A DNA stretch of 64,000 nt. It comes from Escherichia coli. GTDB taxonomy: Bacteria; Pseudomonadota; Gammaproteobacteria; Enterobacterales; Enterobacteriaceae. A model generated the notes under the pieces. The model was not told where the DNA came from. It ran no database searches and was given only the letters and a program-made list of their open reading frames with translations. Below, one piece after another: positions 13,964 to 63,910 of this stretch. A program made the position numbers and the translations under genes. Numbering within the stretch: the first letter of the stretch is position 1; every line of letters begins with the position of its first letter. The stretch lies in NCBI RefSeq assembly GCF_044324785.1, contig NZ_CP172127.1; one strand, 5' to 3'.

Positions 13964-15154
13964 GTGACCACCCGACAGCATTCGTCGTTTGCTATTGTTT
14001 TTATCCTTGGCCTGCTGGCCATGTTGATGCCGCTGTCGATTGATATGTATCTGCCTGCGCTACCGGTAATTTCAGCGCAATTTGGTGTACCGGCGGGCAG
14101 TACGCAGATGACCCTGAGTACTTATATTCTGGGCTTTGCGTTGGGGCAGTTAATCTACGGGCCGATGGCAGACAGTTTCGGGCGTAAGCCGGTGGTTCTT
14201 GGCGGTACGCTGGTGTTTGCCGCCGCCGCGGTGGCGTGTGCGTTGGCAAACACCATCGATCAGCTGATTGTGATGCGTTTCTTCCACGGACTGGCGGCTG
14301 CTGCGGCCAGCGTGGTTATCAACGCTTTGATGCGTGATATCTACCCGAAAGAAGAGTTCTCGCGGATGATGTCGTTTGTCATGCTGGTGACGACCATTGC
14401 ACCGCTGATGGCACCGATAGTTGGCGGTTGGGTGCTGGTGTGGCTGAGCTGGCATTACATCTTCTGGATCCTCGCCGTGGCGGCGATTCTGGCTTCGGCA
14501 ATGATCTTCTTTCTGATCAAAGAAACCTTACCACCGGAGCGTCGCCAGCCTTTTCACATTCGTACCACTATTGGTAACTTTGCGGCGCTGTTCCGTCATA
14601 AGCGTGTCCTGAGTTATATGCTGGCCAGCGGTTTCAGCTTTGCCGGGATGTTCTCGTTCCTGAGCGCCGGACCGTTTGTCTATATTGAAATTAACCACGT
14701 CGCGCCGGAAAACTTTGGTTATTACTTTGCGCTAAACATTGTTTTCCTGTTCGTAATGACCATCTTTAACAGCCGCTTCGTCCGCCGAATTGGCGCGTTA
14801 AATATGTTCCGCTCGGGGTTGTGGATACAGTTTATTATGGCGGCGTGGATGGTCATCAGTGCGCTGCTGGGGCTGGGATTCTGGTCTCTGGTGGTTGGCG
14901 TTGCGGCGTTTGTGGGCTGCGTGTCGATGGTGTCATCCAATGCGATGGCGGTCATTCTTGATGAGTTTCCCCATATGGCGGGAACGGCATCTTCGCTGGC
15001 AGGAACCTTCCGTTTCGGCATAGGGGCAATTGTTGGCGCATTACTTTCTCTTGCGACCTTTAACTCTGCATGGCCGATGATTTGGTCAATTGCATTCTGC
15101 GCAACCAGCTCCATTCTCTTCTGTCTGTACGCCAGTCGGCCGAAAAAACGGTGA
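13964..15154 (+). CDS. bcr: MFS efflux pump Bcr (bicyclomycin/multidrug resistance)
   Basis: 396 aa, 12-TM MFS profile; apparent GTG start. Confidence 0.9.
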
Positions 15155-15168
15155 TCTATTGCACAACG

Positions 15169-15194
15169 AGGAAGCTAAAAGGCTTCCTTTGTTG
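15169..15194 (+). terminator. Rho-independent terminator downstream of bcr
   Basis: Stem ggaagc/gcttcc with short loop, followed by tttgtt. Confidence 0.6.
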
Positions 15195-15256
15195 ATGCAT
15201 GTCAACCACAAATCCATCATTCCCCCGATATATGTTTATTTTATGTAAAATCAATT

Positions 15257-15272
15257 TGTGTAAAAAGTCACA
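15257..15272. promoter_or_regulatory. Candidate CRP-like binding site in the bcr-yejG intergenic region
   Basis: tgtgtaaaaagtcaca, one mismatch to TGTGA-N6-TCACA; about 215 bp upstream of yejG. Confidence 0.3.
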
Positions 15273-15486
15273 TCATTGTAGTTAAAAAGGTTGAGTTAGA
15301 TCGCAGAAACGGGTACATATAGCCCCGCAAACGTGACCACGCCCGCAGATATTATTTAAATCAGAGCCATAGAGGCCACGCTGGCGAGGCATCAATCTTT
15401 ACGATCTGTATAAAGACGGATTGTTGATGATGCGTTAAAATTGATGTAAACAAATTGTGAAGTAAATGTGCTTCCGGGGAAAATAA

Positions 15487-15831
15487 GTGACTTCATTACA
15501 ACTCTCAATCGTCCATCGACTGCCGCAGAACTATCGCTGGTCTGCTGGTTTCGCAGGTTCGAAGGTTGAACCGATTCCGCAAAATGGACCGTGCGGTGAC
15601 AACAGCCTGGTGGCGCTTAAATTGCTTAGCCCGGATGGTGATAATGCATGGTCGGTGATGTACAAACTAAGCCAGGCGTTAAGCGACATCGAAGTTCCAT
15701 GTTCGGTGCTGGAGTGTGAAGGTGAGCCGTGCCTGTTTGTAAATCGCCAGGACGAGTTTGCTGCAACATGCCGATTGAAAAATTTTGGTGTGGCAATTGC
15801 CGAACCCTTTTCAAACTACAATCCTTTTTAA
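15487..15831 (+). CDS. yejG: Conserved protein YejG (function unknown)
   Basis: 114-aa ORF with apparent GTG start; conserved position next to yejF. Confidence 0.8.
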
Positions 15832-15834
15832 GCG

Positions 15835-17424
15835 TCAGCTCAACGCCAGTAGCTGACGCGTATACTCCTGCTGCGGTGCGGCAAACACGCGCGCGCACGG
15901 TCCTTGTTCCACTACTTCCCCTTGTCGCAGTACGATAACCTGATGACATAACGCGCGGACAACGTGCAAATCGTGACTGATAAACAAATAGGCCAATTGA
16001 TGCTTTTGTTGCAATGATTTCAATAGCGTCAATATTTGCGCCTGTACCGTTTTGTCGAGCGATGATGTTGGTTCATCAAGAATGATCAGCGAGGGCTTAA
16101 GAATTAACGCCCTGGCAATCGCAATACGTTGCCGCTGACCACCAGAGAACTCCGCCGGATAACGGTGGCGTGTTTCAGGATCTAATCCCACTTCATGCAT
16201 CACGGCTATCACTTGTTGTTCGCGTTGTGCGGCAGAAAGCGTCGGCTGGTGAACCCGTAAGCCTTCCTCAATAATCTGCAAAACGTTGAGTCGTGGGTTG
16301 AGCGAGGAGTTTGGATCCTGAAATACCACCTGAATGCGATGACGAATAGGTAACAGCTGGCGGCGATTTAAATCTTGCAGTGGCTGACCGTCAAAGATAA
16401 TACTGCCCTGAGAGGTAATCAGTCGCAGCAGCGCCAGTCCCGTCGTGCTTTTTCCGGAACCGGACTCGCCCACTAAACCCAGTGTTTCACCCGCCCGTAG
16501 CGTAAAACTGATGTTTTTCACCACCACATTATGATCCACAATGCGCTTCAAAATCCCTTTGCGAATGGGGAAGGCAACCTGCAGCTGTTCAACATCCAGC
16601 AACGTTGAGGCAGGTTCTGGCAATGGCACCGGGTCGCCTGACGGTTCACTGTTGAGTAGCTTTTGTGTGTAAGGATGAGTGGGTGAGGCAAATAGCGTAG
16701 CAGCGTTATTTTGCTCGACACAGCGACCGTTTTGCATTACCGCCACGCGGTGGGCCAGTTTTCTGACAATGCTGAGGTTATGAGTAATAAACAGCATGCC
16801 CATATTCAGCTCGCCTTGCAGTTCGCGCAACAGCTGTAAAATCTGCGCCTGGACAGAGACGTCCAGCGCGGTGGTTGGTTCATCGGCAATTAATAATTCC
16901 GGTCGCGTTAACAGCGCCATCGCAATCATCACCCGCTGGCGTTCGCCGCCGGAGAGCTGATGCGGATAATCTGTCAGCCGTTTTGCCGCCTGGCGGATAC
17001 CGACGCGATCAAGGCAGTTAAGAATTTCGCCACGAGCAGCTTCCCGACGCATCCCGCGGTGGAGTGAAAGCACTTCATAAAGCTGTTTTTCCAGGGTATG
17101 CAATGGATTTAATGACACCATCGGCTCCTGAAAAATCATGGCGATCTTATTACCGCGTACACCGCGCAACGTTTGATCGCTGGCATGAAGCAGCGATTCG
17201 CCATGAAAACGAATATCGCCGGAGAGATATTCAACCGGCGGGGAAGGGAGCAGGCGTAAAATTGACAGCGCGGTAACGCTCTTACCTGAACCAGACTCAC
17301 CCACCAGCGCCAGCGTTTCGCCAGCCTCAATCTGTAGTGAAACATCATTGACTACTGTGCGTACGGTTTGCTGATGGCGAAAACCCACCGACAAATTTTC
17401 AATCGCTAACAGAGTTTGCGTCAT
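15835..17424 (-). CDS. yejF: ABC transporter ATPase, two tandem nucleotide-binding domains (peptide/microcin C uptake system YejABEF)
   Basis: Two Walker A motifs (GESGSGKS twice) and two ABC signature LSGG motifs; start at internal Met (MTQTLLAI). Confidence 0.9.
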
Positions 17425-29861: not shown

Positions 29862-30126
29862 GCTGGTCGATCACTGGAAGAGGAAGACGCGGAGTTTACG
29901 CTGCTTGTCAGAAAATAAACAGACAGCGAAATCAAAAGCGCCACGAATAATCAAAATGCCATTTCACTGTTGCTGATTGGCTGCTGACGCTGCTGAAATG
30001 AAATTGCTGATAACGGATTTTCCCATCAGCAATTAGGAAAAATGACAAAAAATTGTGCAGCACATCAAACTTTTGCTCATAACTTTACGGCTTTCCTTGC
30101 GTGCTGAAACAGAAGTATTATGCTTT

Positions 30127-38533: not shown

Positions 38534-39475
38534 ATGGAAAAGAGAAAAATTATTCTGGATTGTGATCCGGGTCATGATGATGCTATTGCAATGATGATGG
38601 CAGCGAAACATCCGGCGATTGATTTATTAGGTATCACCATTGTAGCGGGTAATCAGACGCTTGATAAAACATTAATTAATGGCCTGAATGTTTGCCAGAA
38701 ACTGGAGATTAATGTTCCGGTTTATGCGGGGATGCCACAGCCCATTATGCGGCAACAAATTGTTGCCGATAATATTCACGGTGAAACCGGACTGGATGGC
38801 CCGGTATTCGAGCCGCTGACCCGCCAGGCAGAAAGCACTCATGCGGTGAAATATATCATCGATACCCTGATGGCAAGCGATGGCGATATCACTCTGGTGC
38901 CGGTTGGTCCGCTTTCAAATATCGCGGTGGCAATGCGTATGCAACCCGCGATCCTGCCCAAAATCCGTGAAATTGTGCTAATGGGCGGCGCTTACGGTAC
39001 AGGCAACTTCACCCCATCTGCCGAGTTCAACATCTTTGCCGACCCGGAAGCCGCACGCGTGGTGTTCACCTCCGGCGTTCCGTTGGTGATGATGGGCCTC
39101 GATCTCACCAACCAGACTGTTTGCACCCCGGACGTGATTGCCCGGATGGAAAGGGTAGGCGGCCCCGCCGGAGAGCTGTTCAGCGACATCATGAATTTCA
39201 CTCTAAAAACGCAGTTCGAAAACTACGGCCTGGCTGGCGGCCCGGTGCATGACGCCACCTGCATCGGTTATCTGATTAACCCTGATGGCATTAAAACCCA
39301 GGAGATGTACGTCGAAGTGGACGTTAACAGCGGCCCTTGCTACGGGCGTACGGTCTGCGACGAGCTGGGCGTTCTTGGCAAGCCCGCCAATACCAAAGTC
39401 GGCATCACTATTGATACCGACTGGTTCTGGGGATTAGTCGAAGAGTGCGTGCGCGGCTACATCAAAACCCATTAA
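38534..39475 (+). CDS. rihB: Pyrimidine-specific ribonucleoside hydrolase RihB
   Basis: 313 aa; N-terminal DxDxxxDD nucleoside-hydrolase motif (DCDPGHDD). Confidence 0.9.
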
Positions 39476-41971: not shown

Positions 41972-42829
41972 TCAGGCTACCGCTTTTTCAGTTTGTTGCG
42001 CTTTCAGCCAGGCGATCTCTTCTGCCCAGATATCCGGGTTGATGGTTTCAAGGATCAGCGGAATGCCGTCGAAACGGTCGTCCTGCATGATCCAGCGGAA
42101 CGCATCATGACCGATATTGCCTTCACCGAGGCTATGATGGCGGTCAACGCGGCTGCCAAAGGTGCTTTTCGCATCGTTAAGGTGCATCCCGCGCAGATAC
42201 TTAAAGCCGACAATACGGGCAAAATCAGCGAACGTTTTCTCGCATTCGGCTGGAGTACGCAAATCATACCCGGCAGCAAAAGCATGGCAGGTATCAATGC
42301 AGACGCCGACGCGGGATTTATCTTCCACGCCGTCGATAATCGCCGCGAGATGTTCGAATTTAAACCCTAAGTTACTGCCCTGACCGGCGGTGTTTTCAAT
42401 CACCGCTGTTACACCTTGAGTTTTATCCAGCGCAATGTTGATGGATTCAGCAATACGCGCAAGGCAATCCTCTTCTGAAATCTGCATCAGATGGCTGCCA
42501 GGGTGGAAGTTGAGCAAAGAAAGCCCCAGCTGTTCGCAACGCTGCATTTCATCTATAAACGCATCGCGCGATTTTTCCAGAGCTTCAGCGACCGGATGTC
42601 CGAGGTTAATCAGATAACTGTCGTGGGGAAGAATTTGCGCCGATGTGTAGTGATATTTTTCACAGGCGGCTTTGAATTCATCGATGGTTTGCGTCGTGAG
42701 CGGTGCGGCACGCCACTGACGTTGGTTTTTGGTGAACAAGGCAAACGCGGTTGCGTCGATTTCGGCGGCGCGAATTGCGGCATTTGCCAGACCGCCAGCA
42801 GCACTAACGTGCGCTCCAATGTATTTCAT
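41972..42829 (-). CDS. nfo: Endonuclease IV (AP endonuclease)
   Basis: 285 aa TIM-barrel AP endonuclease; 2-nt gap to yeiI downstream. Confidence 0.95.
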
Positions 42830-46897: not shown

Positions 46898-48889
46898 ATG
46901 TTTAGGTTGAACCCTTTCGTACGGGTCGGGCTGTGTTTGTCCGCTATTTCTTGTGCATGGCCTGTGTTAGCGGTCGATGATGATGGCGAAACGATGGTTG
47001 TCACTGCATCTTCCGTTGAGCAAAACCTTAAAGATGCACCCGCTAGTATCAGCGTCATTACCCAGGAAGACCTGCAGCGAAAACCGGTACAGAATCTGAA
47101 GGATGTCCTCAAAGAAGTGCCTGGCGTACAACTGACGAACGAAGGGGATAACCGTAAGGGCGTTAGTATTCGTGGTCTGGACAGCAGCTACACCCTGATT
47201 CTCGTCGACGGTAAACGCGTTAACTCCCGCAATGCCGTCTTCCGCCACAATGATTTCGATCTGAACTGGATCCCGGTCGATTCCATCGAACGTATTGAAG
47301 TGGTCCGTGGCCCGATGTCGTCGCTGTACGGTTCCGATGCGCTCGGCGGTGTAGTGAATATCATCACCAAAAAAATCGGTCAGAAATGGTCGGGTACCGT
47401 TACTGTCGATACCACCATTCAGGAACATCGCGATCGCGGTGATACCTATAACGGTCAGTTCTTTACCAGCGGACCATTAATTGACGGTGTGCTGGGAATG
47501 AAAGCTTACGGCAGCCTGGCAAAACGTGAAAAGGATGACCCGCAAAACTCAACGACCACCGATACCGGAGAAACGCCGCGTATTGAAGGATTCTCCAGCC
47601 GCGACGGCAATGTGGAATTTGCCTGGACACCGAATCAAAATCACGATTTTACTGCCGGATACGGTTTCGACCGTCAGGATCGTGATTCCGACTCGCTGGA
47701 CAAAAACCGCCTGGAACGCCAGAACTACTCCGTCAGCCATAATGGGCGTTGGGATTACGGCACCAGCGAACTGAAATACTACGGTGAGAAAGTCGAGAAC
47801 AAAAACCCTGGCAACAGCAGCCCGATAACTTCCGAAAGCAATACGGTCGACGGAAAATACACGTTGCCGCTGACGGCGATTAATCAGTTTCTCACGGTTG
47901 GCGGTGAATGGCGTCACGACAAACTTAGCGATGCGGTGAACCTGACCGGGGGAACCAGCTCCAAAACGTCTGCCAGCCAGTACGCGCTGTTTGTGGAAGA
48001 TGAATGGCGGATCTTCGAGCCGCTGGCGCTGACGACCGGCGTACGTATGGACGATCATGAAACCTACGGTGAACACTGGAGTCCGCGTGCCTACCTGGTT
48101 TATAACGCCACCGACACCGTAACGGTGAAAGGGGGCTGGGCGACGGCATTTAAAGCACCTTCTCTGTTGCAACTTAGCCCTGACTGGACGAGCAATTCCT
48201 GCCGTGGCGCATGTAAGATTGTGGGTAGCCCGGATCTGAAACCAGAAACCAGCGAAAGTTGGGAGCTGGGGCTTTACTACATGGGTGAAGAAGGCTGGCT
48301 GGAAGGGGTTGAATCCAGCGTGACAGTTTTCCGTAACGATGTGAAAGATCGTATCAGCATCAGCCGTACGTCTGACGTCAACGCTGCACCGGGCTACCAA
48401 AACTTTGTCGGTTTTGAGACGGGCGCTAACGGACGGCGCATACCGGTATTTAGCTACTACAACGTTAACAAAGCACGTATTCAGGGCGTGGAAACCGAAC
48501 TGAAAATTCCGTTCAACGATGAATGGAAACTGTCGATCAACTACACCTACAACGATGGTCGTGATGTCAGCAACGGCGAAAATAAACCGCTATCCGATCT
48601 GCCGTTCCATACCGCTAACGGTACGCTGGACTGGAAACCGCTGGCGCTGGAAGACTGGTCATTCTATGTTTCCGGACACTATACCGGGCAGAAACGCGCC
48701 GACAGCGCGACGGCTAAAACACCGGGCGGTTATACCATCTGGAATACCGGCGCGGCCTGGCAGGTGACTAAAGACGTCAAACTGCGCGCAGGCGTGCTGA
48801 ACCTTGGCGACAAGGATCTCAGTCGTGACGACTACAGCTATAACGAAGACGGACGTCGTTACTTTATGGCAGTGGATTATCGCTTCTGA
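46898..48889 (+). CDS. cirA: TonB-dependent outer-membrane receptor CirA (catecholate siderophore / colicin I receptor)
   Basis: 663 aa; signal peptide, TonB box (ETMVVTA), plug and beta-barrel, C-terminal aromatic residue. Confidence 0.95.
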
Positions 48890-63001: not shown

Positions 63002-63910
63002 CTAATTCTGCTGTAAAAAGTGCAGAAACTGACTTAAAGCATAAGAAGGCGTTTCGTTATTGCGCCAGAACACACCGACGCTGCCTTTCTGTTCTATCTT
63101 TGGCAGGTTGAGGATCACCAGTTGTCCCTGGCTGGCATAACGTTGCGCCAGGCGTAATGACAAAATAGAGATCATATCGCTGCTTTGTAACAGGTTGGTA
63201 CTGACGTTCATCGACGCCGACTCAATCGTGTTTTCTGGCAGCATCACGCCGTGGTCTACCAGCGCATTATCAATACTGATGCGAATGGGGGTACCTGTCG
63301 GCCAGACTATCCACCGCCAGTTAGCAAGATCATTCCAGCTGAGGGTGGCGTATTTCGCCAGTGGATGCTCAGCACGGGCGACAAAACACACCGGCTCGGT
63401 GTAGAGCACCTTATAATTCAGTGGCAGCTGCAAGGCGCGACCGCCAATTCGCCCAACGACCACGTCGACAGAACCTGCCAATAGATCTTGCAGCAATGGG
63501 GTCATAACCTTCTCTTCAATATTCAGGTGTAGAGTTGGCATCTCCTTGAGCAAATGCAAAATCGCCTGGGATACGCAGTCAGTGGCGACGGGAGAACAGC
63601 CAATTTTCAGACTGCCGACCAGCCCACCTTGTTTAAAACGGGCCAGTTCATGTTGCGAGCGCTCCATGTCATTGATTAACCGCTGGGCATGTTGCAATAA
63701 CAATCTACCGCCTTCGGTAGGGCGTAACCCTTTGCTGTGCCGCTCAAAGAGTGTGAGGCCGATCTCATCTTCGAGTTGTGACAACCATTTCGACAGCGCA
63801 GGCTGGGTGATATTCATCATCCGCGCGACATGGGTCAGATTGCCCTGTTCACCCAGCGCCACCAGCATTTGCAGGTGATGAAGCTTTAGTTTCTGCGCCC
63901 AGTTTGCCAT
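63002..63910 (-). CDS. LysR-type transcriptional regulator (LTTR), unnamed
   Basis: N-terminal wHTH (LTHVARMMNITQPALSKWLSQLEDEIGLTLFER), C-terminal effector domain; start placed at Met with GGAGG 9 nt upstream (longer alternative start at 63958). Confidence 0.8.
   Translation of the reverse strand: MANWAQKLKLHHLQMLVALGEQGNLTHVARMMNITQPALSKWLSQLEDEIGLTLFERHSKGLRPTEGGRLLLQHAQRLINDMERSQHELARFKQGGLVGSLKIGCSPVATDCVSQAILHLLKEMPTLHLNIEEKVMTPLLQDLLAGSVDVVVGRIGGRALQLPLNYKVLYTEPVCFVARAEHPLAKYATLSWNDLANWRWIVWPTGTPIRISIDNALVDHGVMLPENTIESASMNVSTNLLQSSDMISILSLRLAQRYASQGQLVILNLPKIEQKGSVGVFWRNNETPSYALSQFLHFLQQN

Follow-up and report, generated by a model that had tools for sequence, protein, structure and literature searches.

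A candidate CRP-binding site overlapping an ArcA operator upstream of yejG promoter P2 in Escherichia coli

Introduction

The spacer between bcr and yejG in Escherichia coli contains a 16-mer that resembles the binding site of the cAMP receptor protein (CRP). The question raised by this locus is whether the 16-mer acts as a CRP site and places yejG, a gene of unknown function, under catabolite control. That CRP controls yejG was suggested in 2011 on the basis of in vitro selection, and ArcA and Cra are the documented regulators of the gene. A candidate CRP box 5' of a gene that is already listed by SELEX as a CRP target is routine in itself. What is new here is the specific box at -62.5 of promoter P2, its allele structure and its overlap with an ArcA operator. 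If CRP acts at the 16-mer, a third global input (cAMP) would converge on yejG, a small gene whose function is unknown and which ArcA and Cra already control tightly, and the allele difference would be a natural test of how one transition retunes overlapping operators. The promoter architecture is conserved across the Enterobacteriaceae, which hints at a role of YejG in aerobic carbon metabolism.

Sequences and methods

The window is the whole stretch of E. coli DNA that was analyzed (64,000 nucleotides of contig NZ_CP172127.1), and all positions are window positions unless a genome coordinate is given. Published coordinates (c) were converted to window positions (w) by w = 15487 - (c - 2276259). 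The conversion was verified on the operator sequences printed by Park 2013 and, in U00096.3, on the GalR paper (PMC5110547). Position weight matrices (PWMs) for CRP and ArcA were derived from 148 published SELEX boxes (yejG boxes excluded) and 114 published boxes, respectively. The comparative set consisted of 80 loci from species representatives of the Enterobacteriaceae, and per-base figures refer to 57 unique sequences. Promoter and terminator calls rest on published primer extension and RNA folding; a consensus promoter/terminator scan missed P1, P2 and the bcr terminator.

Organization of the bcr-yejG spacer

The gene names bcr and yejG were confirmed by the RefSeq annotation of matching E. 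coli genomes, and the 451 bp around the 16-mer found a match in 5,425 of the 5,426 complete E. coli genomes (95-99.8% identity). The bcr gene (396 aa) ends at 15154 and yejG begins with a GTG codon at 15487, leaving a spacer of 332 bp (15155-15486) with 38.9% G+C. The earlier note had described an AT-rich spacer of about 330 bp and a yejG gene convergent with the yej operon. Both descriptions hold: the spacer is 61% A+T, and yejG (+ strand) ends at 15831 facing the end of yejF (- strand) at 15835.

15487-15831, + strand: yejG coding sequence, 114 aa, YejG family (PF13989), function unknown
15160-15199, + strand: bcr intrinsic terminator hairpin, core GGAAGC/GCTTCC at 15170-15187, then TTTGTT
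15192-15205, no strand: FNR-like box TTGATGCATGTCAA, one mismatch versus TTGAT-N4-ATCAA

The bcr terminator folds with -21.6 kcal/mol (z = -5.6), and its stem is retained in other genera via compensatory changes. The 3' arm and U-tract of this hairpin form the left half of the FNR-like palindrome at 15192-15205, which is conserved and matches the consensus perfectly in Citrobacter; the overlap with the terminator may account for part of this conservation. The FNR motif was reported at 2276541 (14.1 bits) by Myers 2013 as unbound by FNR in ChIP, with a Fis ChIP-seq peak overlapping it, so the motif is present at this place and the FNR ChIP peak is absent. A scan of 14900-16000 against Rfam at E <= 1 found no known RNA element; a lncRNA match (E = 0.42, 18.8 bits versus a gathering score of 80) was rejected as spurious.

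Sequence and score of the CRP-like 16-mer

15257-15272, no strand: CRP-like 16-mer TGTGTAAAAAGTCACA (tgtgtaaaaagtcaca), centre 15264.5, called from sequence, pattern match, PWM and geometry relative to the transcription start

The 16-mer consists of a left half TGTGT, a 6-bp spacer AAAAAG and a perfect right half TCACA. Its lone mismatch versus TGTGA-N6-TCACA is at position 5 in the left half (A to T), and the earlier note was correct in both the coordinates and the single mismatch. CRP contacts both G:C pairs of each TGTGA half-site, and the contacted G positions are present in both halves of the 16-mer in this window. The PWM score is 11.34 bits, close to the median of the 148 training boxes (11.18).

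Matches to the consensus with at most one mismatch occur nine times in the 64-kb window versus 1.96 +/- 1.39 times in shuffled sequences, and 16 window positions reach 11.34 bits or more versus 3.9 +/- 2.2 in shuffles. This score is attained by a dinucleotide-shuffled spacer in 2.1% of trials. The 16-mer is a genuine match to the CRP consensus, modestly above chance.

One alternative, that the 16-mer is a chance resemblance in A+T-rich DNA without regulatory consequence, is very improbable. In a shuffled window this score is reached about four times, and most E. coli carry a form of the 16-mer (7.64 bits) that is at chance level, being equalled by 21% of shuffled spacers. However, the block that contains the 16-mer is among the best conserved non-coding parts of the locus and is nearly invariant from Escherichia to Mangrovibacter, so the DNA itself must be under constraint whatever binds there.

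The window as a whole is rich in CRP-type boxes (at 30054, 34200, 34255, 37897, 51907, 51992, 53052, 59555, 61711 and 62921). Several of the other eight matches with at most one mismatch are published CRP boxes (cdd, mglB, galS, yeiT and fruA-psuK), and the top PWM matches are the genomic SELEX boxes of fruB/setB, fruA-psuK, rihB/yeiL, galS, mglB, yeiT, cdd and dusC/yohJ. Other CRP-type boxes with high scores are AGTGATATTTTTCACA (42649-42664, 14.2 bits), AGTGAATATCATCACC (47353-47368, 12.5 bits), TGTGAGGCCGATCTCA (63752-63767, 12.1 bits) and TGTGATCCGGGTCATG (38561-38576, 11.5 bits).

Promoters of yejG and position of the 16-mer

Two sigma-70 starts of yejG have been mapped in MG1655 by primer extension, P1 at 2,276,299 and P2 at 2,276,419 (U00096.2; PMC3798280). 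They convert to about 15447 and about 15327, respectively.

15291-15327, + strand: yejG P2 core, -35 TTGAGT at 15291-15296, 17-bp spacer, -10 TACATA at 15314-15319, G+C-rich discriminator, start at about 15327
15284-15289, + strand: A-tract AAAAAG, -43 to -38 of P2, beside the -35 element, 98-100% conserved in the 57 unique sequences
15436-15441, + strand: -10 TAAAAT of yejG P1, start at about 15447 (PMC3798280)

The 16-mer is centred at -62.5 relative to the P2 start, 1 bp off the Class I position -61.5; Class I sites are centred at -61.5, -71.5, -82.5 or -92.5 from the mapped start. The P2 hexamers are invariant across the Enterobacteriaceae and recognizable across the Enterobacterales. By analogy with the way UP elements and Class I promoters are known to be built, the A-tract between the 16-mer and the -35 element is a candidate docking place for the polymerase alpha C-terminal domain. 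The RNA used for mapping came from mid-log cells in glucose MOPS medium, and high cAMP is therefore not required for P2.

Control by ArcA and Cra

15232-15262, + strand: ArcA operator yejG2, ATGTTTATTTTATGTAAAATCAATTTATGTA, three direct repeats at -95 to -65 of P2; 2276484-2276514 in U00096.2 (Park 2013)
15421-15464, + strand: ArcA operator yejG1, four direct repeats over P1; 2276282-2276325, -26 to +18 (Park 2013)
15565-15580, + strand: Cra/GalR-type operator GTTGAACCGATTCCGC inside yejG; predicted LacI-family operator 2278144-2278159 (PMC5110547)

ArcA binding and ArcA-dependent expression are both established for yejG in the K-12 literature. An ArcA ChIP-seq peak was located at 2276488, over yejG2, and yejG was derepressed 11.9-fold without ArcA (Park 2013, PMC3798270). 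In Salmonella the derepression of yejG was 5.8-fold, and sigma-70 occupancy at yejG was 1461 under aerobic versus 56 under anaerobic conditions.

Repeats 1 and 2 of yejG2 (15232-15249) score 17.5 bits with the ArcA PWM and fit the 11-bp direct-repeat spacing. The third repeat is weak, with just 1.4 bits in the 11-bp register (Park 2013, PMC3798270), and it extends over the left half of the 16-mer, including base 15258. A further 7-mer resembling an ArcA repeat starts at 15258. Its common form, ATGTAAA, equals ArcA repeat 2 and scores 8.4-8.7 bits, and the form in this window, GTGTAAA, scores 5.7-7.1 bits. This 7-mer is 15 bp from repeat 2 rather than 11 bp, so that the ArcA spacing is not found inside the 16-mer.

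These data bring in a second reading, in which the conserved block serves ArcA and/or another factor together with polymerase alpha, and CRP has no role at the 16-mer. Its left half would then be an ArcA-type repeat, the CRP resemblance (TGT plus TCACA) would be accidental, and G at 15258 would be a nearly neutral transition in a weak repeat. We regard this reading as a serious contender, only slightly less probable than the composite element proposed below. The ArcA peak, the three-repeat operator overlapping the 16-mer, the score of the K-12 7-mer and the strong ArcA control in both E. coli and Salmonella, with the large difference in sigma-70 occupancy, all argue for it. The 15-bp offset of the 15258 repeat and the 1.4 bits of the third repeat argue against it, and ArcA does not explain GTCAC at 15267-15271, which is 100% conserved.

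Cra has been linked to yejG by a ChIP-exo site within the gene, to which GTTGAACCGATTCCGC corresponds, and by EMSA. In a carbon-source transcriptome study, yejG was classed as Cra-repressed, not as Crp-controlled, and its expression was low in acetate and succinate (high cAMP). The operator GTTGAACCGATTCCGC is about 80 nt past the yejG start codon, and it is unusual for a gene of 114 codons to have a repressor site within it.

Published evidence for CRP at yejG

The yejG<bcr spacer was recovered in cAMP-CRP genomic SELEX of K-12 (two clones and a SELEX-chip peak), and yejG was listed among 119 new CRP targets (Shimada 2011, PMC3105977). That study credited the binding to two other boxes, here called A and C, and did not name the 16-mer at 15257-15272.

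15150-15165, - strand: CRP-like box A, TGTGCAATAGATCACC, overlapping the bcr stop codon; Table S3 of PMC3105977; PWM 11.65 bits
15290-15305, - strand: CRP-like box C, TGCGATCTAACTCAAC, over the P2 -35 element; PMC3105977; PWM 9.97 bits

The SELEX fragments were about 300 bp in length and do not resolve the three boxes, and K-12 carries the weaker allele of the 16-mer. In vitro binding of CRP somewhere in the K-12 spacer counts against the reading without CRP. In vivo occupancy by CRP or CRP-dependent expression of yejG was not found in the literature examined, and the carbon-source study among it reports none, which favours the reading without CRP. The gene is missing among 111 CRP ChIP-seq sites of ETEC H10407; this is a weak negative because mglB is also missing there. 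In O157 Sakai grown in glucose minimal medium, yejG was up 2.9-fold at the exit from exponential growth, which is weak support for CRP and is compatible with other causes.

A third reading is that CRP regulates yejG via boxes A and C, with the 16-mer as a bystander. Box A could act at about -71 from a third, upstream promoter (TTGATG-17-TATCAT in K-12, -35 at 15193-15198) that was predicted as a sigma-70 'constitutive promoter' by RNA polymerase SELEX, and box C could be a repressor site over the P2 -35 element. Both boxes were named for the K-12 SELEX peak, and box A has the best PWM score of the K-12 spacer and is kept in Escherichia and Citrobacter. On the other hand, just two sigma-70 binding events and two starts (P1 and P2) have been found in vivo, the putative third-promoter -10 in this window is CATCAT, and Salmonella, Kluyvera, Klebsiella and Enterobacter lack box A. 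Box A also shares bases with the bcr stop codon and with the 5' arm of the terminator hairpin, so that its conservation is in part due to other causes. This reading is unlikely.

The earlier note had suggested that the 16-mer may indicate catabolite control of yejG. The suggestion stands in so far as such control is documented via Cra, and CRP binds the spacer in vitro and has a candidate site at -62.5. Its extension to CRP control in vivo is qualified by the assignment of the SELEX binding to other boxes, by the low frequency of the one-mismatch form of the 16-mer and by the activity of P2 in glucose. Via CRP, catabolite control of yejG is documented only as in vitro binding.

Polymorphism at base 15258

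15258, no strand: polymorphic base with G in this window and A in K-12 and about 97% of E. coli; the left half reads TGTGT instead of TATGT

Alignment with MG1655 gave the 16-mer TATGTAAAAAGTCACA, with A at 15258, so that the first G of the left half, one of the bases contacted by CRP, is A in K-12 and in about 97% of E. coli. Exact matches to a 64-mer spanning the 16-mer were found for its G form in 59 and for its A form (TATGT) in 5,249 of 5,426 complete E. coli genomes. The G carriers include O145:H28, porcine O139:H1 and ETEC strains, one O157:H7 and scattered human isolates. Among the E. coli genomes compared (L090-L097), G is found in at least three different local haplotypes, and within O157:H7 it is present in TR01 and absent from PV15-279. 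These two observations suggest recurrent mutation or recombination at base 15258. The base at this position also flips between G and A within Escherichia, Salmonella, Enterobacter, Kluyvera, Kosakonia and Superficieibacter.

Compared with the common allele, the G form of 15258 scores 3.7 bits higher as a CRP site and 1.6 to 2.7 bits lower as an ArcA repeat, so whatever input CRP may have is expected to be greater in this lineage than in K-12. A bolder extension is that A/G at 15258 is a natural toggle that turns the ArcA-type repeat ATGTAAA into a working CRP half-site, TGTGT, in the Class I location of P2. Lineages (O145:H28, porcine O139:H1/ETEC, this strain and, repeatedly, other species of Enterobacteriaceae) would thereby switch between mainly redox control and added catabolite control. 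We consider this extension quite improbable.

Among the differences from K-12, two more lie in regulatory elements. At 15433, T to C changes the ArcA repeat TGTTAA to CGTTAA, and this T is also part of the TGn extended -10 of P1. At 15215, T to C changes the -10 TATCAT of the SELEX-predicted 'constitutive' promoter to CATCAT.

Conservation across the Enterobacterales

The block 15233-15323 comprises about 95 bp on the 5' side of the P2 start. It hardly varies among some 75 species of Enterobacteriaceae, from Escherichia to Mangrovibacter and Franconibacter, whereas its flanks diverge and the rest of the spacer drifts freely. The block includes the invariant GTCACATCATTGTAG. The conservation of the 16-mer in the 57 unique sequences is as follows.

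Position 1: T, 74%
Position 2: G 37%, A 58%, the least conserved base of the block
Position 3: T, 95%
Position 4: G, 93%
Position 5: T, 95%; the CRP preference is A
Positions 6-11: AAAAAG, 91-100%; not read by CRP
Positions 12-15: TCAC, 100%
Position 16: A, 89%

As judged from this alignment, the right half and G at position 4 are conserved as expected of a CRP site, and G at position 2 is not. The block is clearly functional DNA, under a constraint that resembles that of a CRP site only in part. The conservation of T at position 5 and of AAAAAG, although CRP does not read them, together with the variability of a G that CRP needs, favours the reading in which the block serves ArcA or another factor. 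None of the other known motifs tried by eye fits the block, which counts against that reading. TyrR (TGTAAA-N6-TTTACA) was rejected for its missing second half, and CpxR (GTAAA-N5-GTAAA) because the pentamers are 10 nt apart, not 5. For PhoP (TGTTTA-N5-TGTTTA), the second half is TGTAAA and the place is the ChIP-proven ArcA site. MarA/SoxS/Rob was rejected because GCAC is missing, IHF because the TTR is missing and a core column is variable, and Fis because its G-N13-C match is merely partial. A PurR half-site at 15325-15333 was rejected as unconserved.

Serratia, Yersinia, Dickeya, Pectobacterium, Erwinia, Photorhabdus and Xenorhabdus retain the bcr-yejG-yejF synteny, the P2 core and the ATGTAAA repeat, and the CRP-like box at -62.5 is absent from the loci of these genera that were compared. 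The P2 core GTTGAG-17/18-TAYATATA with its G+C-rich discriminator is recognizable in Serratia, Yersinia, Dickeya, Photorhabdus and Xenorhabdus.

Distant Enterobacterales (L079, at 1307-1322 of that locus; L080, L082, L083, L084, L087, L088 and L089) have a 5-6-5 palindrome just 3' of a P2-like -10, which is not at that place in the E. coli group. The third arm base of this palindrome co-varies (TGCGA/TCGCA, TGGGA/TCCCA, TGAGA/TCTCA and TGTGT/TCACA). The palindrome could be a small hairpin at the mRNA 5' end or the operator of a CRP/FNR-type protein with shifting specificity. A CRP-type box of Serratia sp. DD3 (15.2 bits), first taken for the Class I site of a GATAAT promoter, is another element, a palindrome just 3' of the conserved P2 -10. 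It was reassigned by comparison with other Serratia, Yersinia, Erwinia, Photorhabdus and Xenorhabdus, and it gives no support for the 16-mer.

Box A and G at position 2 show an apparent inverse association across species. This association is confounded by phylogeny, as all 22 Citrobacter are alike, and no claim is made from it.

Proposed role of the 16-mer

The preferred reading, held tentatively and at somewhat less than even confidence, is a composite element in which a weak-to-medium Class I CRP site on the edge of the ArcA operator gives P2 a modest cAMP boost, stronger in G-allele strains and secondary to ArcA and Cra. The 16-mer would form the promoter-distal end of the deeply conserved control block upstream of P2 and would be, in this strain, a medium-affinity site for cAMP-CRP. 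Class I activation is the likeliest mechanism. A CRP dimer centred at -62.5 would touch the polymerase alpha C-terminal domain, which would dock on the A-tract at -43 to -38 and modestly increase P2 activity at high cAMP. Since the third ArcA repeat extends into the left half of the 16-mer, CRP would be in competition with phosphorylated ArcA. The effect of CRP would probably stay secondary to repression by ArcA (in anaerobiosis) and by Cra.

The PWM score and its rarity in shuffled spacers, the position at -62.5 and the binding of cAMP-CRP to the K-12 spacer speak for the composite element. The fully conserved TCAC, the 93-95% conservation of T and G at positions 3 and 4 and the invariant A-tract between the 16-mer and the -35 element are consistent with the composite element. 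The variable G at position 2, the conservation of T at position 5 and of AAAAAG, and the score of only 7.6 bits in about 97% of E. coli argue against it, as does the absence of the 16-mer from Serratia, Yersinia, Dickeya and Pectobacterium though the P2 core is kept. The location of the SELEX boxes elsewhere, with box A scoring higher in K-12, the activity of P2 in glucose and the classification of yejG under Cra rather than Crp point in the same direction. The last two of these indirect data argue against a strong crp/cya dependence of P2 in K-12. Taken as a candidate from its sequence, the 16-mer is a plausible weak Class I CRP site, and this assignment is partly supported.

Comparison with known systems

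The yejG P2 region resembles Class I promoters of the lac P1 type (CRP at -61.5) in its 16-bp TGTGA-N6-TCACA-type dyad, located 1 bp off, in its imperfect -35 (TTGAGT) and -10 (TACATA) and in the A-rich stretch before the -35. It differs from lac P1 in that P2 is glucose-active, CRP binding at the 16-mer is a candidate from sequence, and the left half of the yejG site, TGTGT in this window, is TATGT in most E. coli, with a critical G that is variable in orthologues.

The proposal of cAMP-CRP control by Shimada 2011 (PMC3105977) concerns the same spacer and the same gene. Unlike the present window, K-12 is without the one-mismatch allele, and the SELEX peak was given to 15150-15165 and 15290-15305.

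As in the multi-repeat operators of ArcA (Park 2013, PMC3798270), the left half of the 16-mer is inside yejG2 and includes an ArcA-like 7-mer, and experiments support ArcA as the main regulator of yejG. Unlike in those operators, the repeat in the 16-mer does not keep the 11-bp spacing, and the ArcA site does not extend to the invariant GTCACA. Finally, yejG resembles promoters co-regulated by CRP and ArcA or Cra: it has a Cra operator, two ArcA operators and CRP-type boxes, as do many genes of carbon oxidation.
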